Virus record (IMG/VR): IMGVR_UViG_3300036835_000552
DNA: 42,869 nucleotides
Reading direction: 5' to 3' (one strand)
DNA from: a virus
This document shows, piece after piece, positions 2,418-42,869 of the stretch (position 1 is its first letter; each line of letters opens with the position of its first letter). The notes under the pieces were generated by a model. The model was not told the DNA's origin. It ran no database searches and saw only the letters and a program-made list of their open reading frames with translations. A program made the translations under genes and the position numbers.

Positions 2418-2421
2418 CGCA

Positions 2422-2565
2422 CTAGCCTCCACGACGCTCCGTCGCTGGCGGGCACGCCTTCGGCGCCGGACAGGTCGGGCAGTCCGGGCACGCGGGTTTC
2501 CTCAGGCAGCATGCGCCCAGCACTGGGAGCAGCAGCACCAGCAGCAGGGTCGCTTTCGCTCGCAT
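2422..2565 (-). CDS. Small outer-membrane lipoprotein, o-spanin-like (47 aa)
   Basis: Starts at an internal ATG (2565) with an AGGGGA RBS. MRAKATLLLVLLLPVLGAC has the lipobox LGAC. The mature part is Pro/Cys-rich (CPDCPTCPAPKACPP). It lies next to the endolysin. Confidence 0.65.
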   Translation of the reverse strand: MRAKATLLLVLLLPVLGACCLRKPACPDCPTCPAPKACPPATERRGG

Positions 2566-2588
2566 CGTCGTCAGTCCCCTTTCCCGTT

Positions 2589-6660: not shown

Positions 6661-6663
6661 CGA

Positions 6664-7923: not shown

Positions 7924-7936
7924 GTCGTCGACTCCT

Positions 7937-8686: not shown

Positions 8687-8691
8687 TGCGC

Positions 8692-10224
8692 TTAGAGCGT
8701 CACCCTTTGCCCGACTTGCATCGCGTTCACACCCGCGAGCGTCCACGCGACCCCGGTCGCCGGATCGACGGCATCGACCCGCGAGACGTAGGTGTACGTC
8801 GAGCTAATCGCGGTGTCGGTGCCCGCGACCTCGGTCGAGGCGGATTTGACGCGCACCTGCGCCTGGCGGGTGCCGGCGTCGGATTTCCGCATGTAGACTT
8901 TCGACACCACGGCGAGCACGGCGAAGGGCGTCACGGCGAGCGGCGACACGGTGTACAAATCCTCGGCGTTGACCACCGAGCTATACACAAAGTCGGTGTC
9001 GCCGTTCGCGAGGGGTTCCGCCACGGCGGCGGCGTTCATGCCCATCGTATGCGTGCAGCCGGCCGTGTTCCCGCCCGTCTCGGTCGAGGCGGGGCACGAT
9101 GCCGGGAACCCACTCGCGAAGGGTTGCGCGAGGGCCAAGTGATCGTTCAGCCCGTAAATCCACGCGCTCGTCGTCGTCGAGAACGAGGCACTTGCCAGCA
9201 AGCAGACCCACACTTGCGACGTCGGAAGCAGATAAACGCCGGGCGTAAACGGGAGGTCGAGCACCCCGGCGCCGGGGTTCGTGATGATCGCCGACGTGCC
9301 GAGGCGGGTGCCGGGATCGTTCGCGTTCCCCCACGGCCCCGCAGTCGAACGCGCCGTCGGTCCGTCATTCGCGTAGATGGCCGCTTGAATCTGCCCCGTA
9401 AGCGCCGACTGGAGGATGATCGTCACCTTCGTCACGACACTCGCCCGCGCCGGGAGCGCCATTTGAATGGGCAGGATCGTGTTCGCCGGCATGGTGATGT
9501 TGCCAGCGCCGCCCGAGGTTGGCGACGTCACGATGCCCGCGAGCGAGGTAGCAAAGTCTTTCTGTGCGGTATCGAACGCCGCCAGTTGGCACACCCCCCG
9601 TACGTCGCCCACCCAATCGTTCGGCGCGGGTGCGCTGCCTGAGTACACGAGGAGATCGTCGACGCGCGGGGCGTTCGCGCCCCCCGTCACCACAATGACG
9701 TTCGCGTAGTTGTTTGCCGTACCGCCGCGCGTGTTGAGGTTCGTCGGGCTCGCGAAGCTATCGGACGTCTGGCCGTTCTTCCGCACGGTCAGCGAGCCGG
9801 CGGTGTTCGAGATCACGACCCGAATCTGAAAATGCGTCCAGACGTCCTGTGCAAACGCGCCGGTGTACGTTGCGAGCACTGTCCCCGTCTGAATCCCTGA
9901 TTTCAGCACGATGTTGCCGCTGGATTCCAGCACGATCGTACACTGCGCCGTGGCGCCGTCGCGAAGAATGACGTACACCTCAGGCGTCGTCCCGGAGAGG
10001 GCACCGGGACGATAGTAGGCCAGGGTGAGGAAGATCGTTGCCTCGTTCGACGACAGATTTTTCTGCAAGCTCACGCCGCTGAGATTCGTAATTCCTTGTC
10101 CCGTCCCGAAACGCGTATTCGCCCCCGTGGTGAAGGTCGGCAAACTGGTCACCGAATCCCACACGCTGCGCGCCACGTCGGCGGTCGAGCCGTAGTAGTC
10201 GAAACTGTCCGCGACGATCCACAT
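8692..10224 (-). CDS. Large fibre-associated protein (510 aa), function unknown
   Basis: The ATG at 10224 overlaps the upstream TAA (TAATG). Beta-rich, Ser/Thr/Gly/Asn-rich sequence. Codon usage is atypical for this genome. Confidence 0.6.
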   Translation of the reverse strand: MWIVADSFDYYGSTADVARSVWDSVTSLPTFTTGANTRFGTGQGITNLSGVSLQKNLSSNEATIFLTLAYYRPGALSGTTPEVYVILRDGATAQCTIVLESSGNIVLKSGIQTGTVLATYTGAFAQDVWTHFQIRVVISNTAGSLTVRKNGQTSDSFASPTNLNTRGGTANNYANVIVVTGGANAPRVDDLLVYSGSAPAPNDWVGDVRGVCQLAAFDTAQKDFATSLAGIVTSPTSGGAGNITMPANTILPIQMALPARASVVTKVTIILQSALTGQIQAAIYANDGPTARSTAGPWGNANDPGTRLGTSAIITNPGAGVLDLPFTPGVYLLPTSQVWVCLLASASFSTTTSAWIYGLNDHLALAQPFASGFPASCPASTETGGNTAGCTHTMGMNAAAVAEPLANGDTDFVYSSVVNAEDLYTVSPLAVTPFAVLAVVSKVYMRKSDAGTRQAQVRVKSASTEVAGTDTAISSTYTYVSRVDAVDPATGVAWTLAGVNAMQVGQRVTL

Positions 10225-10958
10225 TAGAGTGCCCCCCGGAGCGTCCAGGTCGGATCGGCGAGCGTCGCGTCGGCTGGCGTCGCGGCGATGATCTCGATCC
10301 GATCGCCCACGCCGACTGCGACACTCGTCGCCCACACGAACGTCGCCACCGTCGCGCCCGCCGCCCACTGAATCTTCCCCTTCGACGCGCCGTTCACCTG
10401 GACGTCGAAGAGGGTCAGCGCCGTCGCCGCGCCCTTCGCGAGCGCCTGGCTGCCGGTCAGGCCGGCCGGCAGCGTGAACGCCATGGCCGCGTCGTAGAGC
10501 GCGACCGAGAGGCCGGCCGTCGGCACGCCGCCGAGCGAGCCGGCAAGCAGGTAGAACTGGCCGCCGATCAGCTTCCCGACACTCGCCATCGCCGGCACGA
10601 ACTGCGACGTCACGCCGTCGTTGTAATAGACGTACAGGTTGCCGTCCGTCGTGCGCCACCAGAGCTGGCCGACCACCGGCGACGCCGGCGCCGAGGGCCC
10701 GATGACCACCGGCGGCGGCGCGCCGGGCAGGCTGTTGAACGCGGTCACCAGGTCGTTGTGCGCCGCGAACACGGTGTCCAGGTCCGCGTCAACCTCGCTG
10801 TCGTGAATGATGTCGTACCCGAGCGCCACCTCGGTCACGTACTCCCGCGTGCCGCCGCTCTTCACCGGCCGCAGAATGGATGCGGGCGTCCCGCTCCGCA
10901 CGCGCCCGATCGTGATCGCGCGGCGCGCCGCGTTCCGCGTGAGTCTATCGTCCGTCAT
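10224..10958 (-). CDS. Tail fibre-like protein (244 aa)
   Basis: ATGA coupling to gp46. Motif GQLWWRTTDGNLYVYYNDGVTSQFVP, common near fibre N-termini. Confidence 0.6.
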   Translation of the reverse strand: MTDDRLTRNAARRAITIGRVRSGTPASILRPVKSGGTREYVTEVALGYDIIHDSEVDADLDTVFAAHNDLVTAFNSLPGAPPPVVIGPSAPASPVVGQLWWRTTDGNLYVYYNDGVTSQFVPAMASVGKLIGGQFYLLAGSLGGVPTAGLSVALYDAAMAFTLPAGLTGSQALAKGAATALTLFDVQVNGASKGKIQWAAGATVATFVWATSVAVGVGDRIEIIAATPADATLADPTWTLRGAL

Positions 10959-17553: not shown

Positions 17554-19065
17554 CTAGGCCGCCGCGGCGGTGGCCGACGACGGATACTGCAACCGGAACT
17601 GCACGAGCATCGCGAAGATGCGGAGCTGGTTGACGAGGTCCGGCGGGAACAGGACGTTCACGCGATTCGGGTCCGTCGCGTCGCGCTCGACGACGAGGTA
17701 GGTCTTGAACGCGGTCATGTTCTCCGCGAGCGCCGCTTCCTCGAGCTCGCTGTAGAGGGCCACCAGCTCCGCCCGGATCGTGGACGGCGTGACGACCGAC
17801 TGGCCGGCGCCGACGCGCGTGCCGTCGTCCGCGAGCTTCGCGCGCGGGAACTTCGACAGGATGCGATTCCGCGTCTCGCGGACGATCAGCTGGAGCGTGG
17901 CCGGCGTCTGCACATCGAGCCAGGACGGATCCGCCAGGCCCCACGCATCGCGCTGGTACGTGGTGATCGACCGCTGGATGCGGACCACGTCGTCGGGGCC
18001 GGCGTAGCAGGTGGCAATGCCCGCGAAGAGCAGCGACTGGTCGTCCTGAATCGCGAACCGCTGGCCGCGCGGCGCGATGATCGTGCCGATCAGCGGGAGG
18101 GTCTGGAGCGGGCGCGCGGGATCAGCGCGGAGCCCGACCGCGGCCTCGGCCGTCAGCGCCGCGCACATCCGCCAGGGCGGCGTGGGCGAGCCTTCGGGAT
18201 AGCCGAGAATCGTCATGTGCGGGTCGTTCCGCGTCTTCCCGAACGTGACGAGGTTCGACGCGGTGTCCGCGCGCGCGCTGAAGGCGTGGCCGTAGAGCTG
18301 GATATTCCACGCCCACCGGCCGCTGCCCTCGCCGAATGCCTCCTGGGAGGCGTCGAGGGTGGTCGGATCGGACCACGGAATGCCGACGAAGTCGTACTCC
18401 GCGTCCGCGAGCTGCGCGAGCGCGTCCGTGATGTCCGGGTCGCCGCTGCCGCCCGTGAACGGCGTCACTGTCACGGTGAGGCCGGCCGGCACGTACTCGC
18501 CGCCGACCAGGCCGCGGAGGTTGACGCCGACGAACGTCGCGTTGCCGATGGTCCCGGCCGACCGCGCCGTCAGCGTGACGGCGCCCGCCGCCGCCGCGGC
18601 CGAGCACTGCGCGAACGGATCGGCCGCGATGGCCGCGGCGAGCGCCGTCGCGAGGGAATCCGCCGTGCTGGTCGTCGCGACCGGCACCGGATAGCGGCGA
18701 TCGCCCACGTAGACGGCGACCGTGCCCGCCGCCGTCGCGGTGCCCGCGAACGTCAGCGTGCCGCTGGCCTTCGTCCCGGTCGGCTCCGGGACGGCGATGC
18801 ACCACAGCTCGCCGGCCGGATCGTTCCGCCGGTAGACGTCCACCATGTCGGCCAGCATGGAGCCGCTGCCGAAGAGCGCCGCGGCGACGTCGGAGGACGA
18901 CACCAGCGTGATCTCGTTCTCGTTCGCGGGGCCACCCGGCAGCTTGTGCCCGAGCAGGCACGCCGGCTGCGGCAGCTGGAGGTAACTCGCCTGCGTCGCG
19001 TCGAACTCCGCCCAGAAGAGCGGCACGCGCAGATTCGGCGGAATTCTGTTGAAGCTGACGGCCAT
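17554..19065 (-). CDS. Contractile tail sheath protein (Mu gpL-like)
   Basis: Starts at an internal ATG at 19065. N-terminus MAVSFNRIPPNLRVPLFWAEFD, plus further conserved sheath motifs. Confidence 0.9.
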   Translation of the reverse strand: MAVSFNRIPPNLRVPLFWAEFDATQASYLQLPQPACLLGHKLPGGPANENEITLVSSSDVAAALFGSGSMLADMVDVYRRNDPAGELWCIAVPEPTGTKASGTLTFAGTATAAGTVAVYVGDRRYPVPVATTSTADSLATALAAAIAADPFAQCSAAAAAGAVTLTARSAGTIGNATFVGVNLRGLVGGEYVPAGLTVTVTPFTGGSGDPDITDALAQLADAEYDFVGIPWSDPTTLDASQEAFGEGSGRWAWNIQLYGHAFSARADTASNLVTFGKTRNDPHMTILGYPEGSPTPPWRMCAALTAEAAVGLRADPARPLQTLPLIGTIIAPRGQRFAIQDDQSLLFAGIATCYAGPDDVVRIQRSITTYQRDAWGLADPSWLDVQTPATLQLIVRETRNRILSKFPRAKLADDGTRVGAGQSVVTPSTIRAELVALYSELEEAALAENMTAFKTYLVVERDATDPNRVNVLFPPDLVNQLRIFAMLVQFRLQYPSSATAAAA

Positions 19066-19760
19066 CAGTGCGTCCTCCCCTCGGTCTCGGTCTCGCAAAG
19101 CAGCTCGTCGACCGGGCCGCCGGTGACCTTCGTGCGCGGGACCATGAACTCGACCTCGATGCGCCCGTCGGGGCCGGGGTAGCGGATGTTCGGATCCGCG
19201 GCCGGGTCGATCACGTCGACGTCGAAATGCAGGCGACAGAGGAAGTCCGGGATTACCGGGTCGTAGTTCCGGCCGAAGGTCAGGACGGCGTTGATGGTGC
19301 CGCCCATGGTGCGCCGGTCGGTATCCTCGACGCGGCCGAGCACGCCAGTCGTCTCCCACCGCTCGACGCCCTGGAACATCGCGCAGGAGTGGCCGTTGAC
19401 GTGCAGCGTGTACCACGCCGGATTCGGCAGCAGCGCGTTCGTGATCTGCTCGCAGAGGTTGTCGAACGACTGCTGGCTGTCGACCATCAGGCGCGCGGCG
19501 GGCTCGAGGTCCTGCGCCACGGGCGTCTCCACGATGACGTCGATCGCCAGCTTCAGCGCGTAGCGGAACTGGAACGCGCCGACCACGCCGCCGTCGATGC
19601 CCTCGCCCGTTTCGTCGAGCGTGTAGACGCCGATCGCCGGCAGTGGCAGCTCGCGGCGGTAGGGAATGATCGGCGTCGGATAGACGCGGTCGCCCGCCGC
19701 GGTGCCCGCGGCCTTCAGCACGGCGACGGTGGCGAGACGGATGACGTGCCGGTCGAGCAT
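19065..19760 (-). CDS. Neck / tail-completion protein
   Basis: Starts at an internal ATG at 19760. The N-terminus (...GDRVYPTPIIPYRRELPLPAIGVYT) resembles head-tail adaptor/terminator families. Lies between gpFII and the sheath gene. Confidence 0.55.
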   Translation of the reverse strand: MLDRHVIRLATVAVLKAAGTAAGDRVYPTPIIPYRRELPLPAIGVYTLDETGEGIDGGVVGAFQFRYALKLAIDVIVETPVAQDLEPAARLMVDSQQSFDNLCEQITNALLPNPAWYTLHVNGHSCAMFQGVERWETTGVLGRVEDTDRRTMGGTINAVLTFGRNYDPVIPDFLCRLHFDVDVIDPAADPNIRYPGPDGRIEVEFMVPRTKVTGGPVDELLCETETEGRTH

Positions 19761-22820: not shown

Positions 22821-23012
22821 ATGGACCAGCCGCCGGTGTCTCGCGACCGGATGATCGGGCTGACGAAGGCGGCGCGCGACCTCGGCCTGGCGCACCGGAC
22901 GTTGCGGCGCGCGGTATCGAGCGGCGAGCTACCGACCTACGTCTTCGGGCAGCGCGCGCGCGTCAAGGTGACCGACCTGCGCGCCTGGATCGAGCGCCAC
23001 CGCCAGCGCTAG
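22821..23012 (+). CDS. Excisionase-family (MerR-like) HTH DNA-binding protein (63 aa)
   Basis: LTKAARDLGLAHRTLRRAVSSGELPTYVFGQRARVKVTDLRAWIE. On the opposite strand inside the head operon. Confidence 0.7.
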   Translation: MDQPPVSRDRMIGLTKAARDLGLAHRTLRRAVSSGELPTYVFGQRARVKVTDLRAWIERHRQR

Positions 23013-24568
23013 CCGGCGACGTCGTGCCCGTTCGTGAGCGGCCGACCGCGCGCGGGCGGCGGCGGTGGCGCGCCTGGGAGCGGCGGCTCGCCCGGCGCCG
23101 CGGCCGATTCGGCCGGCACGCCGGCGCCCTGCTTCGTCGTGCGGCGCGGGTCAATGTCGCTGACCAGCTTCAAATCGTCGAGCATCTGCGCGAACTGCTG
23201 CCACTCGCGCAGAATCGTCTCCGGGTCATAGCCCAGCTCGCGGATCGCCTCTTGCGGCGACGTGAGCGTGGCGCGGACCGCGTCGATTACCGGCGTGGTC
23301 TCGCGTGCCGGATCGACCAGCGGGCGGCGCGGCGTGGTCCAGATCATGGACACGTTGCTCGTATCGTAGCCGGCGATGCGCGCCCCATCGAGGAACCAGC
23401 CGAACACGCGGTCGCAGAAGCCGGGGATGATCACCTGCCACTGGAGTTCTTCGACGAGCGCGTAGTAGGCGCCGCGGCTCATGCGGCCCGACGAGAAGTT
23501 GAACTGCGAGAAGTCGCCCGACAGCTCTTCGTAGGGCACGCCGGTGCCCGCGGCGACGGCCTGGAGCCCGATCCGCATCACGTCCGCGTAGCCTTCGACG
23601 CCGGGCGGGCTCGCGAAGGTGACCTCGTAGCCGGGCGGCAGCTCTTCCACCATGCCCGGCTCGACGTGATCGCAGAGCGGGCTCTGGCGCGAGCGCGTGC
23701 CACCTTCGGGCGTCGAGTAGAAGGCCGCGAAGCACGCCGCGATCTTCTGCCGCACCTGATGCGCGTCCTTGCACTCGTCGAGGTCGCGGAGCGCGATCAT
23801 GGCCGGCGCGAGCAGCGGACAGCCGCGCCCCTGGCCGGCGCGCTCCTCGTCAAAGATGTGTGCCACGTCCTCCGCGGACACGCGCGTCGGCGGCTGCATG
23901 CCGCGCATCCAGGCCCAGGCGTCGCCCGGATGGTACGGCAGCAACCAGTACGCCACCGGGCGGTCGTACTGGTCGTACTCGATGCCGGCGCAAATCCGGT
24001 GCCCGCCCAGCTCGAACTCGCGCGGGTAGAGCATCGCGTCGAGGTAGTCGGCCTCGAGGACCTGCACGCGGAAGCCGAGCGGCACGTCGGGGTCCCACAC
24101 GCGGCGCGCGAGGACCTCGCCCGACTCGCAGAACGTCCGCGCGACGAGCCGCTGCAAGCCCGCAAACGACTGCTTGCCGCGCTGGTCCGCCGTCTGCGCG
24201 TCGGCCCAGGTCCCCCACAGCTGCTGGAGCGCCGACGCTGTCCGCTTGTTCTTGCCCGTGATCGTGCCCGTCAGGCCGTAGCCGACGAGGCTCGACGCGA
24301 GCGCCCGCACCACGCGGCGCCCGTAGGGGTTGTTCCGCACGTGGTCGCGGCTGCGGTCGCGGAGCAGCGGCAGCGCCGTCGCCAGCTCCGTGTTGGCCGA
24401 CGTGCCCGGCGCGACGCGCCAGCCCTCCATCCGCCGCGACTTGGCCGCGCCTTCGTAGTCGCGGACGGCGCCGAGCGCCACGCGGGCGCGCGACCGGCGC
24501 AGCGCGCGCATGGGCGACGCCCACGCGATCAGGCGGTCGAGCCGCGTCAGCGGAGGCGCGTCGGCCAT
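23009..24568 (-). CDS. Portal protein, lambda gpB family
   Basis: 519 aa, conserved N-terminus (RLDRLIAWASP...DYEGA...RR..GW). Synteny with gpW. Confidence 0.9.
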   Translation of the reverse strand: MADAPPLTRLDRLIAWASPMRALRRSRARVALGAVRDYEGAAKSRRMEGWRVAPGTSANTELATALPLLRDRSRDHVRNNPYGRRVVRALASSLVGYGLTGTITGKNKRTASALQQLWGTWADAQTADQRGKQSFAGLQRLVARTFCESGEVLARRVWDPDVPLGFRVQVLEADYLDAMLYPREFELGGHRICAGIEYDQYDRPVAYWLLPYHPGDAWAWMRGMQPPTRVSAEDVAHIFDEERAGQGRGCPLLAPAMIALRDLDECKDAHQVRQKIAACFAAFYSTPEGGTRSRQSPLCDHVEPGMVEELPPGYEVTFASPPGVEGYADVMRIGLQAVAAGTGVPYEELSGDFSQFNFSSGRMSRGAYYALVEELQWQVIIPGFCDRVFGWFLDGARIAGYDTSNVSMIWTTPRRPLVDPARETTPVIDAVRATLTSPQEAIRELGYDPETILREWQQFAQMLDDLKLVSDIDPRRTTKQGAGVPAESAAAPGEPPLPGAPPPPPARGRPLTNGHDVAG

Positions 24569-24747
24569 CAGCTCGCCTTCGTGCGCTGCACGTAGTCCAG
24601 CAGGGCGGCGAGCACGGATGGTTCAAGGACGATCACGTTGGTGGCCCGGATGCCGTCCTCCGTGGTCAACACGAGATCGCCGTACTGGCTCCAATCGGCA
24701 TACACCGCGTCACCGAGATATATCTTGCTGGGCGGTGCGGCGGCCAC
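24568..24747 (-). CDS. Small ORF (59 aa, GTG start) between gpW and the portal gene
   Basis: The GTG overlaps the gpW TAG and its stop overlaps the portal ATG. The coding-like part is ...KIYLGDAVYADWSQYGDLVLTTEDGIRATNVIVLEPSVL... Confidence 0.4.
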   Translation of the reverse strand: MAAAPPSKIYLGDAVYADWSQYGDLVLTTEDGIRATNVIVLEPSVLAALLDYVQRTKAS

Positions 24748-25103
24748 TAGCGCGCGCGCTCCCAATCGACGTCGGTGGTGCGCGTCGGATCGCACGGCGC
24801 GCCGCGCGAGAAGAGCACGTCCACGCCGGGAATCTCCTGGTGCTCGAGGGCGCCCCATCCGCCGTAGCCGGTGTTCAGCCCTTTCGAGAAGCACGCGCCG
24901 CGCCGGATCGGTGTGCCGCCTGGGAGGCCCAGGTTCGCCCGGCTCCAGTCCCACGCCTTCAGCAGGTCGCTGATCGAATGGAACTTGACGGAGCGGTCGG
25001 CGTAGTCGACCTGCTGCACGCCCGCGGCGATCGCTTGCGCCAGGCCCTGAATCAGCAGCTCGACGACCTCGGGCGGCAGCAGCGTTCCATTCCCGTTCGC
25101 CAT
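24747..25103 (-). CDS. gpW-like head-tail joining protein with a C-terminal extension
   Basis: AGGGGG RBS. VQQVDYADRSVKFHSISDLLKAWDW...RRGACF parallels lambda gpW. Position before the portal gene. Confidence 0.65.
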   Translation of the reverse strand: MANGNGTLLPPEVVELLIQGLAQAIAAGVQQVDYADRSVKFHSISDLLKAWDWSRANLGLPGGTPIRRGACFSKGLNTGYGGWGALEHQEIPGVDVLFSRGAPCDPTRTTDVDWERAR

Positions 25104-25139: not shown

Positions 25140-25505
25140 CTAGCGCCGCCGATCCCGCGACGACGACCGCCGCCACGTGACCGGCGGCCCCTTGGTCGGC
25201 GTCGGGACTATCTGCGCCGTCGGCGGCGGCGCCACCGTGCGATGGAACAGCCACTGGCCCTCTGGGCACCGCCAGTGCTCCTCCCACTGGCCGAGCTCGA
25301 CGACACTCGGCTGGAGAGAAGCGAACTGCATCAGGCGCGCGCAGTGACGGCAGAGCGGCGGTGTGACGTCGTCGCTCCTGGCGGCCGCCTCAGCCTCGCG
25401 GCAGCGATCCAGGAGCTCCCGCGCCAGCCGTGCCTCGGCCTCGGCGATCCGCGCCGGCGTCATGTGCGGGTTCTTGCCCCGGATGTCGCGCCATCGCGTC
25501 GTCAT
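25140..25505 (-). CDS. Hypothetical protein (121 aa) with a CxHC...C motif
   Basis: ATGA coupling with the upstream gene. Part of the accessory island. Confidence 0.5.
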   Translation of the reverse strand: MTTRWRDIRGKNPHMTPARIAEAEARLARELLDRCREAEAAARSDDVTPPLCRHCARLMQFASLQPSVVELGQWEEHWRCPEGQWLFHRTVAPPPTAQIVPTPTKGPPVTWRRSSSRDRRR

Positions 25506-25871: not shown

Positions 25872-26060
25872 TCAGACCTTCCAGCCGGCCTGCCGGGCGA
25901 TGCTGTTGAGCGTGCCACGTTTGAGCTCCTCACTCGGATGTCCGGCCACCGTCACGACGCCCGGGCGGTCCGGATGCTTGAACTGTCGATGACTCCCGAT
26001 CTGGCGCGCGACGTACCAGCCCTCGGTGTGCAGGCGGCGCAGCACGTCGCGAACCTTCAT
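25872..26060 (-). CDS. hicA: HicA mRNA-interferase toxin (62 aa)
   Basis: MKVRDVLRRLHTEGWYVARQIGSHRQFKHPDRPGVVTVAGHP...TLNSIARQAGW is the canonical HicA pattern. Confidence 0.85.
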   Translation of the reverse strand: MKVRDVLRRLHTEGWYVARQIGSHRQFKHPDRPGVVTVAGHPSEELKRGTLNSIARQAGWKV

Positions 26061-26115
26061 CCTGCAGAGGAGACGTATGAACCCAAGGTGTTGGGTTGTC
26101 AAATGGGCGGGTGCT

Positions 26116-26346
26116 TCAGGCGCCGTCGGCGGGACGCCCTGGCAGGTCCTGGGCGTCGAGGATCGGACGCTCGAGCGCGGCCTTCCGCGCGAGGTCCAGA
26201 CTGGCCAAGAGGTCGTCCAGGGTATCGCCGACGAAGCCGCATGGCCGCTCGGAATACACGCTCGGCGCGCCCGCCTCGTCGTAGTAAACCTCGTGGAGCG
26301 CGTGACTTCCGTCTTCGTGGCGGATGACGCGGTAGTTCCAGCTCAT
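26116..26346 (-). CDS. Small acidic protein upstream of hicA, HicB-like antitoxin candidate without an obvious DNA-binding domain
   Basis: MSWNYRVIRHEDGSHALHEVYYDEAG... The position next to hicA is the main argument for the call. Confidence 0.5.
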   Translation of the reverse strand: MSWNYRVIRHEDGSHALHEVYYDEAGAPSVYSERPCGFVGDTLDDLLASLDLARKAALERPILDAQDLPGRPADGA

Positions 26347-26350
26347 CGCG

Positions 26351-26710
26351 CTAGTCGTACACGATCACGCAGTCGCCACGGATGCGCGTGCGGTGCCCGG
26401 CCGGGTCCCGGAAGGCGATGCCGCTCCAGCCGCGATCGACGGCGCCGTCCGAGCGGCCCTCGTAGATGAGCTGCCCGTTCGAGAAGCAGCGCACCGTGGC
26501 GGGCCCCAGTGCCGGGACCGCGGCCGTGAGCAGCCAGCCGAGCCCGAGGCCCGCGGCGATCGCGCCGAGCCCCATGGCGAGGACCCAGAGGAAGGGCGGA
26601 AGCGTGATCCGTCTTCGAGGGACCGCGGCGGCGGCCGCCTTCTGCGCGAGGTCCTCAGGCACATTGGCGGCGCGCAGCGCCTGATAGAGGTCCGCGTTGA
26701 CGAGGGTCAT
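26351..26710 (-). CDS. Single-pass membrane protein (119 aa)
   Basis: The ATG at 26710 overlaps the stop of the ClpX-zinc-finger gene (ATGA). TM segment [25 protein letters not shown]. Confidence 0.55.
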
Positions 26711-27126
26711 TCTGGCGCAGCCGGCCACAAGAACCGGATGATGTCGAGCGTCTGGGCCGCCTCGTGACCGACGGCCAGGCGCTCGAGGCCGCCGCTGACC
26801 CGCGCGAGGCGGCGCTCGATCTCGGCCGCGTCGCCCGCGAGCACGGCCTCCGCAATCCTCTCGAGCTGTGCGGCGCCGTCCCGCTGCCGTGCGGCGGCCG
26901 TCCGGAGTGCCGCGGCGAGTCGCGCCGCGATGGTCTCATGGTCCCAGCCGGTCATGCGTGTTCCCTCCCTTGCGTCCCTGACGGCCGCGGGCTCCCAGGT
27001 CTCCAGGTTCCCGAGGACGATGTCGTTACAGAGGGCGATGCACTCGTTGCAGATCTGGACGTCCGGGCCAGCGATCAGCTTCCGCACGTCGCGGCGCGCC
27101 TTGCCGCAGAAGGAGCAGGCATCCAT
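26707..27126 (-). CDS. Stand-alone ClpX-type C4 zinc-finger (ZBD) protein with a helical C-terminal domain (139 aa)
   Basis: [46 protein letters not shown] closely matches the ClpX N-terminal domain (E. coli: [34 protein letters not shown]). No AAA+ module follows. Confidence 0.8.
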
Positions 27127-27142
27127 CTCGACCCTCCGAGAC

Positions 27143-27176
27143 GAGCGTCTACAATTTAGTTCAATTGTAGACGCTC
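27143..27176. repeat. Perfect 14-bp inverted repeat with a 6-nt spacer (GAGCGTCTACAATT tagttc AATTGTAGACGCTC)
   Basis: Read directly from the sequence. AT-rich for this genome. Spans the stop of 27156..27848 and lies 17 nt upstream of the ClpX-ZBD start. Confidence 0.85.
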
Positions 27177-27848
27177 CCGCCAGCGTCGTTGCCGGGTCGT
27201 CTTCCCCGAAACCGGGCCGTTGAATCGCGGACGACCGGCGCCGCGTCGCGCGAGTCGCTCGCGGAGATAGCGCAGTTCGTCGCCGGAGTATCGCGACCGA
27301 AGCCGGGCGGCTTCGGCGTCGAGCGCGCGTCGGCGCGCGACCGGGAGATCGAGCGTCCGCGTTCGATAGTATTCGGCGCGCCCGCGCCCGGCCGGCGGCG
27401 CGTCTTTCGCGAGCGTGAGCCGATACGGCGAGACGGGCGCATTGAGTAGCGTCGGAGTCTTCCGGTCGCGTCGGAGCCAGCCGTGATGGCGTGCGAGATC
27501 GAGGAGCGAGACGCCGGCCGGTGCGCCCCACTGCTTGGCAGCAACGTCAATCGGGCGCCGGTGCGGGCCGGCCGGGTCGGTCATGGCGGCGGCGATCGTC
27601 CCGATCGTCTCGACCCGTGTCCACGTGAGGAGGCGCGCGACATCGCTGTAGTCGGCGCCACAGGCGATCAGGAAGTAGTCAAACTCGTGGGCGCGCCAGC
27701 GGTCATGCGACACGGCGGTCCGATAGTCGCGCCAGATACCGGACGCGAACATGGCGACGACCGTGTCGACGTAGGTTCCCATCCGGCTCGCGTTGCGGAG
27801 CGCCGACATGAAGCTCACAACGCCCTGACCGCGTCCGTCAAGCGCCAT
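27156..27848 (-). CDS. Unknown protein (about 230 aa) coupled to the HNH-helicase gene
   Basis: The first in-frame ATG (27848) overlaps the helicase stop by 11 nt. Alternative starts at 27809 and 27782. Arg-rich C-terminus. No family recognised. Confidence 0.5.
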
Positions 27849-30334: not shown

Positions 30335-32326
30335 CTACGAGCGGCGCGGGCGATCCCAGAACGACGACCGCCGCCAGCCCGGATGCGGCGCGCCCGCGCC
30401 GGGCAGCGGGACCGTCGGCGGTGCCGGCGACGGGGCGCTCGGTGGCGGCTCGGGCGGCGCAGACGGCCCCCCGAGCGGCGCCTCCAGCCGCCGCCAGTCG
30501 TCCTCCGTGAACCGATCGATCCCGACGAGATGCGCCGCGGCGCGCGCGTAGTTCCGGCAGTCGCTCGCTTCGTCGCGGCGATGAATGTTGATCCATTCCA
30601 GCTTCTCGACGCCGCGCACCACGCGCCGGACCAGCGCATGCGCGACGAGCTGCTGCACGAACTCGTCGCCGACCGCGGGCAAGCTGACCCAGCCGGCCGG
30701 CGTTGGCATGCCTGGCGCCGGGGCGTCCAGCTGGAGCCAGCCGTAGAACTCCAGCCGCAACGCATGCACGTTGACTTGCCAGACGCGGAGCCCGCGCCGC
30801 CGCCGCCGCACGCGCCCGCGCGTCTCGATCGCTTCGGCCGCGCGCGGCAGCGAGACCAGCGTCGGCCCCGGTGGCCCCCCCCGGACCAGCATGACACGCT
30901 CGGGCGGTTGCGTCCGTGCCCAGCGGTGCGCGGGCGCAGGCGCGAAGCCCGTATCGATGGCGACCTTCGCGAGCGGCATGGCGAGCGCACCCGCCGTCGG
31001 CCAGGTCCGCGCACAGAGCGCCGTCAATGCCTGCCAGCACTCCTCGGCGGCCGGATCGCCCTCGAGGACCTGGTGGTCGACGAGCCAGGAGCGCAACCCG
31101 CGGCCCCACCCCCACAGGCTGACCTCGAGGCGGTCGCGCTGGATGTCGACGCCGGCCGTCAGGAACAGCACGCCGGGCGGCACCGTGCCCAGCGGCGCAG
31201 TCGTCTGGCGCTCGCGCAGCCGGTGCCAGTCCGGTGCCTCGCTCGGCGCCGCATACGTCTCGCCGAGCACCGTGTTCGTAAAGGTCTGCATCCGCTGCTG
31301 GTCGCCGGCCGCCTTCTCGGCTGCGGCAGCGATCTCCGCCCAGGAGAGCCAGCCGACCGGCGAGTAGAGGGCGTTCAGGTGGAAGCCAGCAACGCCCGGA
31401 TCGGCCGTTGGCGCGGTCGCGCGCCATTCGCCCCGCCCCAGCATCCTCGTCTTCGCGCCCTCACGGATGAGCTCGTGACATGCTGCGCAGCGATAGCGCG
31501 CCGTCTTCGGCCGCCCCGGCTCCCACTCAAGGCGCGGGAACTCGAGCACCTGGAACGCCCCGCAGTGCGGGCACGGGACGAAGTAGCGCCGCTGGTCCGT
31601 CGCGAGGAACTCCTGCTCGATGCGTGAGAGCCCGGCGACCGTCGGAGTCGACATCACGAGCTCCTTCCGCCGGCTGCCGTACGTCCGCGCCCGCGCCTCC
31701 GCGAGCGCGAGGGGATCCCCCTCGCCCTCGACGTTCGCCGGGTAGCGGTCGACCTCGTCGAAGGCGAGATAGCGACAGGAGAACGCGCACAGGCCCGCCG
31801 CGGAGTTGGCGCCCGTGATCGCGACGAGGCCGCCCGGAAACTCCTTGAGGAGCACCGTGTTGGCCGCGTCGCGACTCCGCGGCGTCGAGACCCGCGCGCG
31901 CAGCGCCGGGCTTTCCGTGATCGACGTGTCGATCCGCTGGCGCGAGAGCCGCTTGCCGAGCTCGACGGTCGGCTGCACGAACAGGAACGGTGCCGGCGCG
32001 AGGCAGATCGTGTACCCGAGCCAGTTGACGGCCCCCTCGGTAAAGCCGAGCTGCGCCGCCTTCTGGACGACGACGCGCCGGATCGGCGAGCGCGCCGAGA
32101 GCGCATCGCAGACCGCGCGAAGGTACGGCGTCCGCTGCGTCCGCCAGCGGCCCGGCTCGGCGGCGCCGCGACCCGAGAGCACCCGATGCTCGTCCGCCCA
32201 CGCCGAGACGCTGAGCGGCGGGTCCGGGCGCAGCCCATCGCAGAGCGCCGCCTGAATGGCTGCGGTATCGGCGCTCGTGGGCTCAGAACGCAACGCGGTG
32301 GTTGGCGAGCTCGGTGAGGAGGTCAC
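30335..32326 (-). CDS. terL: Terminase large subunit, lambda GpA family
   Basis: WADEHR.L....A.PGRWR..RTPYLR, QKAAQLGFTE (Walker A-like), and the CPHCG...C..C zinc motif are typical of GpA. Confidence 0.9.
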   Translation of the reverse strand: MTSSPSSPTTALRSEPTSADTAAIQAALCDGLRPDPPLSVSAWADEHRVLSGRGAAEPGRWRTQRTPYLRAVCDALSARSPIRRVVVQKAAQLGFTEGAVNWLGYTICLAPAPFLFVQPTVELGKRLSRQRIDTSITESPALRARVSTPRSRDAANTVLLKEFPGGLVAITGANSAAGLCAFSCRYLAFDEVDRYPANVEGEGDPLALAEARARTYGSRRKELVMSTPTVAGLSRIEQEFLATDQRRYFVPCPHCGAFQVLEFPRLEWEPGRPKTARYRCAACHELIREGAKTRMLGRGEWRATAPTADPGVAGFHLNALYSPVGWLSWAEIAAAAEKAAGDQQRMQTFTNTVLGETYAAPSEAPDWHRLRERQTTAPLGTVPPGVLFLTAGVDIQRDRLEVSLWGWGRGLRSWLVDHQVLEGDPAAEECWQALTALCARTWPTAGALAMPLAKVAIDTGFAPAPAHRWARTQPPERVMLVRGGPPGPTLVSLPRAAEAIETRGRVRRRRRGLRVWQVNVHALRLEFYGWLQLDAPAPGMPTPAGWVSLPAVGDEFVQQLVAHALVRRVVRGVEKLEWINIHRRDEASDCRNYARAAAHLVGIDRFTEDDWRRLEAPLGGPSAPPEPPPSAPSPAPPTVPLPGAGAPHPGWRRSSFWDRPRRS

Positions 32327-32789
32327 GTACCTGGTCCTCGAGGAGCGTCGTCACGGCGTGCGTGTCGAGCTCGAAGGCCGTCGCGAGCGCCGCGCCGATC
32401 CGCACGGGCCACGTTTGGCAGCTCTCGCGGAGCGCCCGCGCGAACTCGTGCGCCGTGTGTAGCGCGCGCGCCCGCGAGACGAGCTCGCTCCGCAGCCGCG
32501 CGACCTCGAGCTCGTGCCGCTCGGCGTCCGCGAGGGCGCGGCGCCGACGTGCCTCCTCGAGATCGACCACGGTCGCCTCGGCGATCGGCGCGTGCTGTCG
32601 CGTGTGCGCCGCCCATGCCCGGTCGGCAGCCACCGGATCGATGAGGCCGTCCGATCCACGCCGGATCCGGCCCTCCTGGAGTGCTCGCTGCACGGTCCGC
32701 CGGCCCACGTGCCGGTGGCGGGCATACGCGAGGACGGTCATGCCCCCGGGCGGCCGGGCGGCCCGTTTCCGCGCTGTTACGCTGGGCAT
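32283..32789 (-). CDS. terS: Terminase small subunit (Nu1-like, N-terminal wHTH)
   Basis: Position upstream of and overlapping terL. YARHRHVGRRTVQRALQEGRI is HTH-like. Start uncertain (32789 or 32741). Confidence 0.6.
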   Translation of the reverse strand: MPSVTARKRAARPPGGMTVLAYARHRHVGRRTVQRALQEGRIRRGSDGLIDPVAADRAWAAHTRQHAPIAEATVVDLEEARRRRALADAERHELEVARLRSELVSRARALHTAHEFARALRESCQTWPVRIGAALATAFELDTHAVTTLLEDQVRDLLTELANHRVAF

Positions 32790-38513: not shown

Positions 38514-39827
38514 TTAGACGTCCCCGCCGTCCTCGCCCATGTCACCATTTCGGCGAAATGTCACCACTTCCCCGCCGACCGCGTCCCGCCGTGGTGACAT
38601 CGGGGCCTCGGGCGTCCCGTCGAAGAGGCCGACCGCAGACGCCGGGAGCTTCGGGCGGGCGGTGACGCCGTAGGTGTTGACGGTGAGCTCGATCCCCGCG
38701 TGGCCGAGCTGGCGCTGCACGTAGACGGGCGAGACGCCGGCGTCGATGAGCCGCGTGCCGTAGGTGTGGCGCAGGTCCTGGGCGGAGAGCGGGTGGGCGA
38801 GCCCCGCCTGGCGCCCGAGGCGGGCGAGGGCGCGGGCGACGTTCCGCGCCTGGACGGGGCCCCCGTCGCGGGACGGGAAGAGCCAGCGGCCGACGGGCGT
38901 GCCGGCCTTGAGCGCCCGCTTCTTGAGCCCGGCGACCTGGGCCCGGAGTACGGCGACGAGTTCCGGCGACCCGGAGAGGTCGACGTCGCGCGGGCCGAAC
39001 TTCGGCGGCTCGAGGGTCATCCGCTTGTAGTCGAAGCCTTGGCGGACGTGGAGCACGGGCGGCTCGGCGCGGAAGTCGGAGACCTCGAGCGCGATCGCCT
39101 CGCCGAGCCGGAGCCCGGCGCGGGCGTAGACGAGGAGCAGCGGATACCAGGCGCGCGCGCGGTCGCGGGTGGTCGTCGTGAGCGCGGCCAGCTCGGGGAG
39201 GGCGAGCACGCGCTGCTCGATCCGTTGCACGCGCTCGCGCGTCGTCGGCTCGAAGCGCAGTCCCCGGGCGCCGCCCAGCTTCGCGGCGGGGTTGGCGGCG
39301 AGGAGGCCGTCGTCGACCGCGGCCTGCAGGGCGGCGCGGAGCGCGGCGTAGACGTGGCGGACGGAGCCGGGCGCGAGTGGCCGCGCGGCGTGGGGGCACG
39401 GGATCCCGTGGTCGGCGCGGGCCCTGACGCACGCCGCCCGGGAGCACGGCGCGCGGCCGTCGACCTGGACGCCGAGGAGGAAGTCCTTGAGATCGGCGCG
39501 CTGGAGCCGCGTGACGCGGACGTCGCCGAGCGCGGGGACGATGAAGCGGGTGCAGGCGCGCTCGTAGGCGTCCCACGCGCGAGGCTTGAGCGTCGCGCGC
39601 TTCTGCCGGAGCCACCGGGCGACCCACTCCGCGAGCGTCATCCGGGGATCCAGCGCCACCCGCCGCGCTGGCGGGCCCTGCCTGCGGCGCTGCGCGGAGT
39701 AGGGGACGAGCGCCTTGAAGGCGTCCTCGGCCTCGGCCTTCGTCCGGAAACGCTTCTGCTGGCGCACGCCGTGGGCGTCGCGGAAGTCGAGGTAGTGGGC
39801 GCCGCGGCGTTGGACGACCTTCGCCAT
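38514..39827 (-). CDS. int: Tyrosine recombinase / phage integrase
   Basis: ...DLRHTYGTRLIDAGVSPVYVQRQLGHAGIELTVNTYG (the HxxR...Y catalytic region). Adjacent to the tRNA fragment. Confidence 0.9.
   Translation of the reverse strand: MAKVVQRRGAHYLDFRDAHGVRQQKRFRTKAEAEDAFKALVPYSAQRRRQGPPARRVALDPRMTLAEWVARWLRQKRATLKPRAWDAYERACTRFIVPALGDVRVTRLQRADLKDFLLGVQVDGRAPCSRAACVRARADHGIPCPHAARPLAPGSVRHVYAALRAALQAAVDDGLLAANPAAKLGGARGLRFEPTTRERVQRIEQRVLALPELAALTTTTRDRARAWYPLLLVYARAGLRLGEAIALEVSDFRAEPPVLHVRQGFDYKRMTLEPPKFGPRDVDLSGSPELVAVLRAQVAGLKKRALKAGTPVGRWLFPSRDGGPVQARNVARALARLGRQAGLAHPLSAQDLRHTYGTRLIDAGVSPVYVQRQLGHAGIELTVNTYGVTARPKLPASAVGLFDGTPEAPMSPRRDAVGGEVVTFRRNGDMGEDGGDV
38539..38600. repeat. Three further ATGTCACCAyT copies (two direct, one inverted), right arm, inside the int 3' end
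   Basis: Copies at 38539-38549 (ATGTCACCATT), 38558-38568 (ATGTCACCACT) and 38591-38600 (GTGGTGACAT, inverted). Confidence 0.75.
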
Positions 39828-40063
39828 CAGCGCTTCTCCCGCGTGACCGCGGCAGCGATCTCGGCGATCGATTCAGCCGTCTGGGTCTCGATCGAGGCGT
39901 TCGCGATCCCACCCATCGCGGCGACGATCACGAGGACGTTGACCCACAGCGGGAACAGGTTGAAGGCGTGGCAATAGGCGAGCAGCCCGGTGGTGACGGC
40001 GCCGCCGATGAGCCCGGCGACACCGGCACGCTGCTGCATGCGCTTGGTAGGAGTCGCGACCAT
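39827..40063 (-). CDS. Two-TM membrane protein (78 aa)
   Basis: VAGLIGGAVTTGLLAYC ... FPLWVNVLVIVAAMGGI. Start and stop coupled to the XRE gene and int. Confidence 0.55.
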   Translation of the reverse strand: MVATPTKRMQQRAGVAGLIGGAVTTGLLAYCHAFNLFPLWVNVLVIVAAMGGIANASIETQTAESIAEIAAAVTREKR

Positions 40064-40296
40064 CAGCTAGCTCCCCGGGCGCGCCGGGAAGGCGTCGGCC
40101 GCGCCGACGTCGACGGGTTCCCCGCCGCCCCGCGATCGGCGTACAGCGTGAGGGCGGTGACGGCGAGGGGCGGGATCGGGTTGGTCCCGGTCTCCCACCG
40201 GGAGACGGTCATCATGCGGACGCCGAGCGCGTCCGCGAGTGCGTGCTGGGTCAGGCCCAGCCGGCGCCTCAGGCGCCGCAGGTCGGTGTTTGTCAT
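40063..40296 (-). CDS. XRE-family (Cro/CI-type) HTH regulator (77 aa)
   Basis: LRRLRRRLGLTQHALADALGVRMMTVSRWETG. High third-position GC. Confidence 0.8.
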   Translation of the reverse strand: MTNTDLRRLRRRLGLTQHALADALGVRMMTVSRWETGTNPIPPLAVTALTLYADRGAAGNPSTSARPTPSRRARGAS

Positions 40297-41099: not shown

Positions 41100-41495
41100 A
41101 TGGCGGATCGTCTGACGAAGGAGGAGCAGCGGTGGCGGGCGGCGATCCGCGCGCGGCGCTACGACGAAGCACTCGCCATCTGTCGCCGAGTCGAGCCCCT
41201 GCTTGCAAGTCTCGTCGCTGAGTCGCACGGCGCGCGACGCGCCGACGGACGCAGGAAGGCCGCCTCGCTTGGTGGGAGCGTGGGACCGCTCGGCGCGCCC
41301 AGTGTCTTGAACGGCTGGATTCCGGCGCCCGATCTCGCACGCGAGGTGGGACTCGACACGCGCACGATCAAGCGACAGCTGACGGGCCACGTCTTCGCGT
41401 CGCCGATCAGCGACCGCGTCACGCTCGTCCATCGCGAGAGCTACTTCGCCTGGGTTGCTGCCGGGCGTCCGGCGCCCCAGCCGCAGGCGAGCTGA
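41100..41495 (+). CDS. HTH-containing early protein (131 aa)
   Basis: Starts at an internal ATG at 41100 with an RBS. DLAREVGLDTRTIKRQL is HTH-like. TGATG coupling to the exonuclease gene. Confidence 0.55.
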   Translation: MADRLTKEEQRWRAAIRARRYDEALAICRRVEPLLASLVAESHGARRADGRRKAASLGGSVGPLGAPSVLNGWIPAPDLAREVGLDTRTIKRQLTGHVFASPISDRVTLVHRESYFAWVAAGRPAPQPQAS

Positions 41496-42397
41496 TGAGC
41501 GATCGCACTCGCAGTCTCGGCGCGTCCGACGCCGCTGCCGCGGTCGGCCGCGACCCGTGGCGCACGCCGGCGGATCTCTACCTCGAGAAGACCGGGCGGC
41601 TCGGCCCGCAGCTCCGCGCCTCGCCGGCGATGGAGGCCGGAACGTTCCTCCAGGACGGTATCCTCGACTGGGCGGCGCACACGCTCGGCCTGCCGCTCGC
41701 CTGCCGGCAGTGGGCCCTCGTCCATCCCACCCACCCCGAGCTCTCGGCCACGCTCGACGCCGTCCTGGATGACGGCGCGCTCCTCGAGGCGAAAACGGCC
41801 GGCCTCGTCGGCGGGACGGGCGAGCACCTCGCCGCGTGGGGCGATGCCGGCACGGACGACGTGCCGACGCATGTCCTCCTCCAGGTCCACCACCAGTTCG
41901 CCGTCGCCGCCGCACAGCCCGACTGGCCGGCAGGCCGAGAGCCGCGGCGCTGCTACGTGCCGGCCCTGCTGGCCCGGCGCGGCCTGGTCCTCTTCCTCGT
42001 CGAGCGGCACGACGCCCTCGTCGACGCCCTGATCGAGCGCGAGCGGCAGTTCTGGCGCGACTACGTGCTCGCGGACCGCTGCCCGCCCGACAGCCTCCCG
42101 ACGCTCGACGTGCTGGCACGGATCGCCCGTGAGCCGGCCGTGACGGTGCCGATTCCAGACGCCGCCGTGCGCGCGTGGCAGGAGGCCAAGGCCAAGGTGA
42201 AGGACGCCGAGGCGGCGGAGTCGGCCACCCGCCGGACCGTGCTCGCCGCCCTGGGGACCGCCGAAGCGGGCACGTGCACGCTCGGGACGGTCCTCTATGT
42301 CGAACGACAGCGCCGCGCCTACGAGGTCCCGGCGTCGACCTACCGCCAGCTCACGTGGAAACCCGCCCCCGGGCGGGAGCAGGAGGCCGTCCCATGA
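41495..42397 (+). CDS. YqaJ-type (lambda-exonuclease-like, PD-(D/E)XK) recombination exonuclease
   Basis: SLGASDAAAAVGRDPWRTPADLYLEKTGR ... LEAKTAG is the canonical YqaJ N-terminal and catalytic pattern. Confidence 0.85.
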   Translation: MSDRTRSLGASDAAAAVGRDPWRTPADLYLEKTGRLGPQLRASPAMEAGTFLQDGILDWAAHTLGLPLACRQWALVHPTHPELSATLDAVLDDGALLEAKTAGLVGGTGEHLAAWGDAGTDDVPTHVLLQVHHQFAVAAAQPDWPAGREPRRCYVPALLARRGLVLFLVERHDALVDALIERERQFWRDYVLADRCPPDSLPTLDVLARIAREPAVTVPIPDAAVRAWQEAKAKVKDAEAAESATRRTVLAALGTAEAGTCTLGTVLYVERQRRAYEVPASTYRQLTWKPAPGREQEAVP

Positions 42398-42869
42398 TCG
42401 AAGGCACACCCGCGATCGTCCCGACGACGGCGCTCGAGGCCGTCGCGCGGGCCGAGATCGACATCCAGGTCGCGACGGCGAAGCGCTATCCCCGCGAGGT
42501 CGCGCGGGCTGTCGCGCGCGCGGTCGAGATGGCCACCGCCTCGCCCGACATCGCCGCGCAGTGCTTCTACGTGCTCAAGCGGAAGGACAACCGGACGGGC
42601 AAGGTGACCACCATCGAGGGCCCGTCGATCCGCCTGGCGGAGATCTTCGCCTGCACGTGGGGGAATCTCGCCTACGGGTTCCGCGCCATCGCCGACGACG
42701 GGCGGGCGGTCGTGCTCGAGGGGGTCTGCGTCGACTACGAGACGAACCTCCGCTGCACGAAGCAGGTGCGCCGCAACGTGCTCGACCGCAACGGGCGGCG
42801 CCTCTCCGAGGACCTCGTCACCGTGACGACGATGGCGGCCGGCTCGATCGGGTGCCGCAATGCGATCTT
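42394..42869 (+). CDS. 5' part of the putative single-strand annealing protein (continues at nt 128 of the window through the circular join)
   Basis: ATGA overlap with the exonuclease stop. Open to the window end. In phase with 1..509. Confidence 0.55.
   Translation, partial: MIEGTPAIVPTTALEAVARAEIDIQVATAKRYPREVARAVARAVEMATASPDIAAQCFYVLKRKDNRTGKVTTIEGPSIRLAEIFACTWGNLAYGFRAIADDGRAVVLEGVCVDYETNLRCTKQVRRNVLDRNGRRLSEDLVTVTTMAAGSIGCRNAI
42743..42869. repeat. Terminal direct repeat copy 2 (identical to 1..127)
   Basis: Base-by-base identity with nt 1-127. Confidence 0.9.

Follow-up and report, generated by a model that had tools for sequence, protein, structure and literature searches.

A mobile phage gene pair with an optional ClpX-type zinc-binding head and a coupled membrane partner

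The window analyzed here, the whole 42,869-nt stretch of the virus record IMGVR_UViG_3300036835_000552, represents the whole genome of a temperate phage, assembled as a circle. Two adjoining genes on its minus strand encode a 139-aa protein, in which a ClpX-type zinc-binding domain (ZBD) is joined to a helical tail, and a 119-aa membrane protein, further referred to as the partner. Our tentative best explanation is that these genes form a mobile two-gene accessory module with the following features: (i) the tail is bound to the cytoplasmic N-terminus of the partner at the membrane, (ii) the ZBD is an optional dimerizing head, and (iii) two isoforms are probably made from the ZBD-tail gene. Coordinates of all features are collected in Table 1.

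The N-terminal domain of the 139-aa protein is a true ClpX-type ZBD. Residues 3-37 match the Pfam family PF06689 (zf-C4_ClpX) with 63 bits, compared with a gathering score of 27, and an E-value of 2.3e-17; phmmer against the PDB returned the ClpX ZBD (1ovx/2ds5) with an E-value of 4e-13 and about 68% identity to E. coli ClpX. The zinc ligands follow the pattern C-x2-C-x18-C-x2-C, where Cys4, Cys7, Cys26 and Cys29 correspond to Cys15, Cys18, Cys37 and Cys40 of the E. coli protein (numbering from PMC8808172). In an AlphaFold2 (AF2) model of the protein built from 16 family sequences, the domain superimposes on 2ds5/2ds6 with a root-mean-square deviation of 1.1-1.4 A over 35-37 residues and a TM-score (target) of 0.71-0.79. 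The protein has no AAA+ module: with the NCBIfam ClpX equivalogs it reaches 41-43 bits, where the cut-offs are 359-371, and the match is limited to residues 3-43. The GC content at third codon positions (GC3) is 0.88 in the ZBD-tail gene and 0.91 in the partner gene, in both cases the coding signature of a genome with 70% GC.

The linker that follows the ZBD is predicted to be disordered (pLDDT below 50 for residues 40-61), and the remaining 82 aa are modeled by AF2 as four helices (residues 63-80, 85-97, 100-114 and 121-133). The tail is acidic, with an isoelectric point of 5.65, and lacks a DNA-binding motif. When the tail was compared with PDB and BFVD by Foldseek, no match had an E-value below about 1. 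The partner, for which eight homologs were found, is predicted to have a cytoplasmic N-terminus, a single transmembrane segment and a small periplasmic domain; for the beta domain, Foldseek returned only weak, repeated matches to YgdR/YgdI-type lipoproteins with E-values of 0.04-0.6. Neither the tail nor the partner has a significant match in Pfam (E-values up to 10), PHROGs, PADLOC or NCBIfam; weak matches to XhlA/haemolysin and anti-sigmaE proteins, far below the cut-offs, were taken as leads only. The stop codon of the ZBD-tail gene overlaps the start codon of the partner gene in an ATGA tetranucleotide, an arrangement that we read as translational coupling, and no Shine-Dalgarno (SD) motif is present ahead of the partner ATG.

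The first-pass annotation of this DNA, made from its letters alone, had described a phage-encoded stand-alone ClpX ZBD without an AAA+ module, followed by a helical tail of about 80 aa and ATGA-coupled to a single-pass membrane protein. This observation and this architecture are borne out in every part, including the phage origin, as genes for TerS, TerL, a portal, sheath and baseplate, an endolysin and an integrase all occur in the window. The same annotation had named a pseudogenized fragment of a full clpX gene as an outcome that would overturn it. No clpX remnant was observed, the reading frame and its coding signature are intact, and ten full-length relatives are likewise intact. Its functional interpretation is only partly supported, as described below.

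A search of 5.8 billion proteins yielded ten full-length relatives composed of a ZBD and a tail, at 58-87% identity, as well as five tail-only proteins (P0011-P0015) of 82-85 aa and 68-78% identity, whose start corresponds to Met58 of the window protein. An exhaustive HMMER search with a tail profile against 1.84 billion representatives produced three true clusters, the other matches being alanine-rich multi-stretch noise, and a family-profile scan of GTDB genomes and IMG/VR found no relative, its sole match being a real Erythrobacter clpX. Because of these three clusters and the lack of relatives in GTDB and IMG/VR, we regard the tail as a very small orphan family, of which all known members come from metagenomes.

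Comparison of the loci points to the part of the module that is conserved. The tail gene, whether fused to a ZBD or not, overlaps the partner gene by 4 nt in all readable loci (the window, L001, L002, L003, L004, L011, L012, L013, L014, L015, and two contigs without DNA), and the two genes adjoin on 12 contigs representing at least five genomic contexts. The partner N-terminus in all these loci conforms to M-[TS]-L-[VI]-x-x-[DE]-[LVI]-Y-x-A-L-R-A, while three kinds of C-termini were observed: a transmembrane segment with a beta domain, as in the window, a transmembrane segment only (L003, 66 aa), and a soluble coiled coil (L002). In L002 and L003, homology to the window at the DNA level is confined to the tail gene and the first 15-26 partner codons. 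Since it ends there, the conserved unit is the tail together with the N-terminal helices of the partner, with a core made up of the 82-aa four-helix domain and the first ~28 partner residues.

The ZBD does not belong to this core. In the syntenic locus L011, where an HNH-helicase gene and a 252-aa gene precede the cassette, a tail-only gene is followed by the same partner type, with an unrelated 110-aa open reading frame (ORF) ahead; across the tail, the partner and the next gene, L011 is 81% identical to the window at the DNA level. With both L011 and L002, the homology sets in at the Met58 codon (26956/26955), and no ZBD remnant was found in three frames upstream of the tail-only genes. The ZBD is thus evidently optional, since close relatives with the tail and the same partner do without it, and the interpretation in the first-pass annotation, which is built around the ZBD, is to that extent not supported. 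The cassette as a whole is mobile: its DNA is 85% identical between the window and L001 and 81% between the window and L011, compared with 66-71% for the TerL, helicase and portal genes of the same phages, and it is also found in the unrelated contexts of L012 and L013/L014.

The boundary at Met58 coincides with a probable internal translation start. An SD-like motif followed by an ATG at Met58 is present in all five fused genes with available DNA (the window, L001, L012, L013 and L015), with a spacing of 4-7 nt. In four of these five genes the match to the anti-SD sequence is at least 5 nt long; L013 has AAGGGAG. In the window, the motif is spelled with the rare codons AGG, GGA and ACA, which account for 2-4% of their synonymous sets, and among 155 internal in-frame ATGs of the window only 5% have an SD match of at least 5 nt. 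Given the conservation, the rare codons and this low background, the fusion has retained the old start site, and two products, the 139-aa ZBD-tail protein and the 82-aa tail, are probably made.

Immediately 5' of the cassette lies an AT-rich inverted repeat that could be an insulator hairpin, an operator, or a terminator without a U-tract. Inverted repeats with other sequences occur at the same position in the syntenic phages L001 (~5455-5480), L011 (~3735-3760) and L015 (~6490-6515), and in a further locus, L016, a GC-rich hairpin (~4935-4985) precedes the ZBD gene.

L016, which has the same layout from TerL to the head-tail adaptor, represents a second cassette type (5001-5638), located between these two genes at the same genome position. 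Here a different helical domain (P0019) bears the same ZBD subtype (D-S-C...KARREV), and the gene overlaps by 4 nt that of an unrelated 81-aa protein with two transmembrane segments. On the basis of this second type, coupling of the ZBD head to small membrane proteins is recurrent.

To characterize the head, we aligned the ten family members with six real ClpX proteins and with ten further small ZBD proteins. Most family members retain the zinc ligands, the hydrophobic helix positions and the VRKLIAGP hairpin, whereas the docking site is altered. At the position of E. coli ClpX L13, all six real ClpX proteins have L or I, and all ten family members have D or N (D2 in the window); Q22, invariant in the six ClpX proteins, is replaced by R in ten of ten (R11); and Y35, which is Y or F in real ClpX, is Q or H in seven of ten (Q24). 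Residues 1-12 of ClpX, including L12, D3 and K4, are absent from the family, and the window protein has only three residues ahead of its first Cys. The phage head hence lacks the set of peptide-docking residues of the real N-domain, namely hydrophobic L13, Q22, and L12 with the N-terminal extension. The E. coli ClpX variants L12S, L13A, L13D and H23A are folded and hexameric, and in them an N-domain-dependent degron is neither bound nor degraded; the site of this degron overlaps that of the SspB tail (PMC8808172). In sequence terms the phage head is a natural 'L13D' form. Titration of canonical adaptors or substrates, proposed in the first-pass annotation, is therefore less likely, because L13 is replaced by D or N (with R in place of Q22) and L13D is binding-defective in E. 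coli. A changed specificity and pairing with the ClpX N-domain are possible, and so are two further proposals of that annotation, heterodimerization of the head with host ClpX and membrane tethering of a ClpX-recognized partner.

According to the explanation that we tentatively favor, the module would be a mobile, translationally coupled, moron-type accessory pair of a temperate phage. The tail would bind the N-terminal helix-loop-helix of the partner, so that a soluble protein is held at the inner membrane face via the partner transmembrane segment, with the small beta domain of the partner facing the periplasm. The ZBD would be a shuffled optional N-terminal head, acquired by in-frame fusion upstream of the original start of the tail gene, whose SD motif and ATG were retained. 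The most likely role of the head would be zinc-dependent dimerization, by which two membrane-bound complexes are paired, the short 82-aa isoform then acting as a non-dimerizing competitor. A role as decoy for the canonical adaptors of ClpX is less likely, as L13 is replaced by D in the docking site of the head. The location of the pair among toxin-antitoxin genes and its horizontal mobility point to a function in host conflict or lysogen benefit. Several observations weigh against this explanation. The binding of the tail to the partner is deduced, the family being too small for covariation analysis, and dimerization of the variant ZBD is deduced from conservation alone. The internal SD motif may be a mere relic of a recent fusion. 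In L009, L010 and a 26-kb contig, the 66-aa partner type lacks an accompanying tail gene, so that the pairing is not obligatory. Finally, the reuse of the head in L016 suggests a specific reusable activity beyond generic dimerization, possibly one related to ClpX.

Two further explanations involve ClpX directly, and we consider both less probable. In one, the idea of the first-pass annotation, the head would mimic the ClpX N-domain, as a decoy for its clients or adaptors or by heterodimerization with the N-domain of host ClpX, and would thereby block adaptor-dependent proteolysis by ClpXP, or else draw ClpX to the membrane or trap it there, beside the partner. Its 68% identity to the E. coli domain speaks for such mimicry, and K27, I29 and A30, for which strong chemical-shift changes were observed on substrate binding to ClpX (PMC8808172), are conserved in the head. 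In vitro, the free wild-type E. coli ZBD dimer, supplied in trans at 5-20 uM, competes for the docking of adaptors, and the RssB-dependent degradation of sigma-S by ClpXP is inhibited (PMC7226468, Micevski et al. 2020). A precedent for a prophage membrane protein is lambda RexB, which, in the account that PMC11077077 gives of Schoulaker-Schwarz 1991, prevents ClpXP-dependent degradation of lambda O. The use of one head subtype on a pair of unrelated helical domains, both with a coupled small membrane protein, fits a head with an activity of its own, and the module adjoins toxin-antitoxin genes, whose antitoxins are protease substrates. On the other hand, L13 is D or N and Q22 is R in ten of ten family members, changes of the L13D and L13A kind abolish substrate binding by E. 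coli ClpX, residues 1-12 are missing, and the ZBD is dispensable in close relatives with the same partner. Moreover, the ClpX hexamer holds intramolecular ZBD pairs, with which a heterodimer would have to compete. In the second explanation, which we hold to be rather doubtful, the variant ZBD would be a portable 'ClpX-N-domain head' that phages mount on various small helical adaptors, with a different small membrane protein coupled to each. By N-domain pairing or through a non-canonical client, the head would hook these membrane proteins to host ClpX or shield them from it, and the proportion of adaptors with and without a head would be set by the conserved internal start.

The gene arrangement also resembles a toxin-antitoxin or abortive-infection pair, in which the partner would act as a toxin that damages membranes and the soluble protein encoded upstream as the antitoxin, with the ZBD dimerizing the antitoxin or coupling its turnover to ClpXP. 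Two small genes with a 4-nt overlap and the soluble one first, a palindrome just upstream, a glycine-zipper motif in the transmembrane segment, and a hotspot that contains HicA in the window and HigBA in L001 all agree with this scheme, as do the coupling of the L016 ZBD protein to the 81-aa protein with two transmembrane segments and the transfer of the two genes as a unit that is more conserved than the flanking core genes. We nevertheless regard it as unlikely: the tail and the partner match no known toxin, antitoxin or defense family in PADLOC, Pfam, NCBIfam or PHROGs, a supposed toxin of the 66-aa type stands without a tail gene, the partner of L002 has no transmembrane segment, and the acidic tail has no DNA-binding motif for autoregulation. 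More improbable still is a membrane-held regulator in the style of a sigma/anti-sigma or antiholin/holin system, whose periplasmic domain would sense a signal and hold or release the soluble helical protein. The predicted topology with a cytoplasmic N-terminus, one transmembrane segment and a small periplasmic domain with two conserved Cys suits a regulator of this kind, and so do the soluble protein encoded immediately upstream and coupled, a weak NCBIfam match of the partner to 'putative anti-sigmaE protein' (E-value 1.3e-3, far below the cut-off), and the layout shared with T4 RIII and holin T. However, the tail matches no sigma-like or helix-turn-helix fold and is too small for an extracytoplasmic function sigma factor, the lysis cassette is about 23 kb away, and partners without a periplasmic domain or without a transmembrane segment exist. 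The domain is otherwise found at the N-terminus of ClpX, as would be expected for a decayed clpX gene, but such an origin is ruled out for practical purposes by the intact ORF with coding GC3, by the ten intact full-length and six tail-only relatives, by the lack of AAA+ sequence downstream, and by the in-frame fusion of the ZBD to an unrelated conserved domain with conserved family-specific substitutions.

The ends of the window are identical over 127 nt (1-127 and 42743-42869), which gives a circular genome of 42,742 bp; a phrog_3657 gene is cut in two by the window ends. The window has a GC content of 70%, and nearly all genes are on the minus strand. The closest TerL proteins, about 50% identical, come from Ralstonia and Rhodobacter phages, and the host is therefore probably a GC-rich proteobacterium. 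When 13 kb around the locus were compared with 50,697 phage records by megablast, a 125-bp match was the only one. The ZBD/membrane pair belongs to an inserted block that separates TerL from the head-tail adaptor and the portal. On the minus strand, an HNH and SF2 helicase fusion is followed by the gene of a 230-aa protein, the ZBD-tail and partner genes, a 76-aa gene, HicA, and two more small genes. The HNH-helicase gene, which has only weak PADLOC matches (PbeA, DinG-like), and the overlapping 230-aa gene are kept between TerL and the portal in at least five related phages (including L001, L011, L015 and the P0066 contig). In the region of HicA and the 76-aa gene (25872-26346), no HicB is recognizable by Pfam. 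The 76-aa gene directly upstream of HicA belongs to phrog_21321 and accompanies the cassette in L011, there without HicA; the same region of L001 contains HigB/helix-turn-helix antitoxin genes in place of HicA. A small conserved zinc-ribbon-like protein with the motif C-x2-C ... W-R-C-P-[DE]-G follows the cassette region in three phages. The pair sits ~23-24 kb from the lysis cassette and endolysin, outside the location expected of a holin/antiholin pair, and the partner was rejected as the main holin of the phage, given this separate lysis cassette.

Table 1. Features of the ZBD/membrane cassette and other landmarks of the window (window coordinates unless another locus is named).
Feature	Coordinates	Strand	Remarks
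ZBD-tail gene	27126..26707	-	139 aa + stop; supported by the ORF, the GC3 signature and ten full-length homologs
Ribosome-binding site GGAGGG of the ZBD gene	27132..27137	-	5 nt upstream of the start
ClpX-type C4 ZBD	27010..27126	-	residues 1-39; Cys4, Cys7, Cys26, Cys29
Predicted disordered linker	26956..27009	-	residues 40-57
SD-like motif AAGGGAGGG, also written AGGGAGGG, in the linker	~26963-26971	-	7 nt upstream of the Met58 ATG
Four-helix tail domain	26710..26955	-	residues 58-139
ATGA stop/start overlap	26707..26710	-	ATG 26710-26708 over TGA 26709-26707
Partner gene	26710..26351	-	119 aa + stop, counted from the ATG
Partner cytoplasmic helix-loop-helix	26627-26710	-	residues 1-28, predicted
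Partner transmembrane segment with glycine zipper	26507-26602	-	residues ~37-68, preceded by RRR; from hydropathy
Partner extracytoplasmic five-strand beta domain	26354-26506	-	residues 69-119, two conserved Cys; AF2 model
AT-rich inverted repeat GAGCGTCTACAATT N6 AATTGTAGACGCTC	27143..27176	.	perfect, 14 bp; across the stop codon of the 230-aa gene
HNH endonuclease fused to SF2/ResIII helicase	29994-27838	-	
230-aa gene	27156-27848		overlaps the HNH-helicase gene
HicA toxin gene	26102-25872	-	Pfam, 77 bits
Zinc-ribbon-like small protein	25140-25505		L001, 6653-6886; L011, 5363-5587
Head-tail adaptor	24747-25103		
Portal gene	23009-24568		by synteny with L001
Sheath gene	17554-19098		by synteny with L001
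Baseplate and tail-fiber genes	4890-10958		
TerL (gpA type)	30335-32293		
TerS	32283-32789		
Integrase	38514-39827		
Repressor-like gene	40063-40296		
RecE-like exonuclease	41495-42397		
Lysis cassette	1458-3239		
Small holin-like ORF with two transmembrane segments	1458-1727		lysis cassette
Endolysin	1818-2417		GH19-like, judged from sequence motifs
216-aa protein with N-terminal transmembrane segment			lysis cassette; i-spanin-like
Embedded Cys/Pro-rich lipoprotein ORF	within 2422-2775		lysis cassette; o-spanin-like

ClpXP governs several phage and host decisions through lambda O, MuA, repressor fragments, antitoxins and sigma-S, and, to our knowledge, known phage interference with host proteases acts via unrelated inhibitors. 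If the head proves to be a mimic, a phage copy of the protease's own adaptor-docking domain would thus be a new strategy, and if it is a portable head, a new class of phage modulators of a host AAA+ protease by domain mimicry would be added. If the head only dimerizes, the locus would still be a clean case of domain capture from a host chaperone, with a fusion that kept the old start, and its biological interest would be modest. In any case the locus adds testable structure: a modular and optional head, defined docking-site substitutions, recurrent coupling to small membrane proteins, and probably two isoforms. We consider it a moderately interesting lead, whose putative link to host ClpXP looks less direct than the first-pass annotation had it.

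ClpX-type ZBDs are present in four PHROGs (phrog_6797, phrog_12435, phrog_5259 and phrog_20296); the matches of the window protein to them span residues 3-50, the ZBD, only, and the whole protein does not qualify as a member. By tblastn, the ZBD was detected in 56 phage records, about 20 of which are jumbo phages of ~220-500 kb, most annotated with a clpX-type gene. Other small ZBD proteins of phages are E. coli P88 gp19 and D6 orf93 (phrog_6797), and the 65-aa proteins of Pseudomonas phi1, PP9W2 and BUCT566 (phrog_12435). Among these, P88 gp19 (L006, 2309-2976) and the D6 protein (L008, 2306-2626) are labeled 'carboxylate-amine ligase', an apparent misannotation, and the 65-aa proteins are annotated 'Clp protease'; wrong names are thus attached to such proteins in several cultured phages (P88, D6 and Pseudomonas phi1-like). 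Outside ClpX, other architectures with a ClpX-type ZBD were observed among the proteins P0049, P0052, P0016, P0026 and P0055: a ZBD with sigma-70 region 3, tandem double ZBDs, and a C-terminal ZBD of a 176-aa protein (408-kb contig). Literature searches on stand-alone or phage ZBD proteins found no paper characterizing one, in agreement with the first-pass annotation, which knew of no characterized phage protein of this type; yet small ZBD proteins have already been catalogued in cultured phages.

Comparison with known systems reveals both common and distinct features of the module. The phage domain resembles the ClpX N-terminal ZBD (1OVX, 2DS5-2DS8) in ligand spacing, 68% identity, fold and hydrophobic positions, whereas the phage protein differs from ClpX by the lack of AAA+, the loss of residues 1-12, the substitution of D, R and Q for L13, Q22 and Y35, respectively, at or close to the docking site, and the presence of an unrelated four-helix domain. 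Like the window protein, the small ZBD proteins of other phages are phage-encoded, lack an ATPase and occur in accessory-gene regions, and P88 gp19 overlaps the downstream gp20 by 4 nt. In contrast, the P88 and D6 proteins have a C-terminal ZBD with a hydrophobic residue at L13 and Q22 kept, the non-ZBD parts of these small proteins are unrelated to the tail, and P88 gp20 has no transmembrane segment. The isolated ZBD acting in trans (PMC7226468) follows the mechanism proposed in the first-pass annotation, with the difference that the domain there is wild-type and the one here has an L13D-type change. RexB of lambda, described as an 'anti-cell-death' gene for toxin-antitoxin modules in references given by PMC11077077, is polytopic, lacks a ZBD and has no sequence relation to the module. 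A small helical cytoplasmic protein combined with a single-pass protein that has a cytoplasmic N-terminus and a periplasmic C-terminal domain is also found in phage T4, where RIII is a cytoplasmic antiholin bound to the cytoplasmic N-terminus of the single-pass holin T with its periplasmic domain; no sequence similarity to this pair was found, and the module is outside the lysis cassette. Finally, the dual-start S107/S105 genes of lambda have, like the ZBD-tail gene, two in-frame starts, each with its own SD motif, that could give a long and a short product; here, the putative products would differ by a whole 57-residue domain plus linker rather than by two residues.

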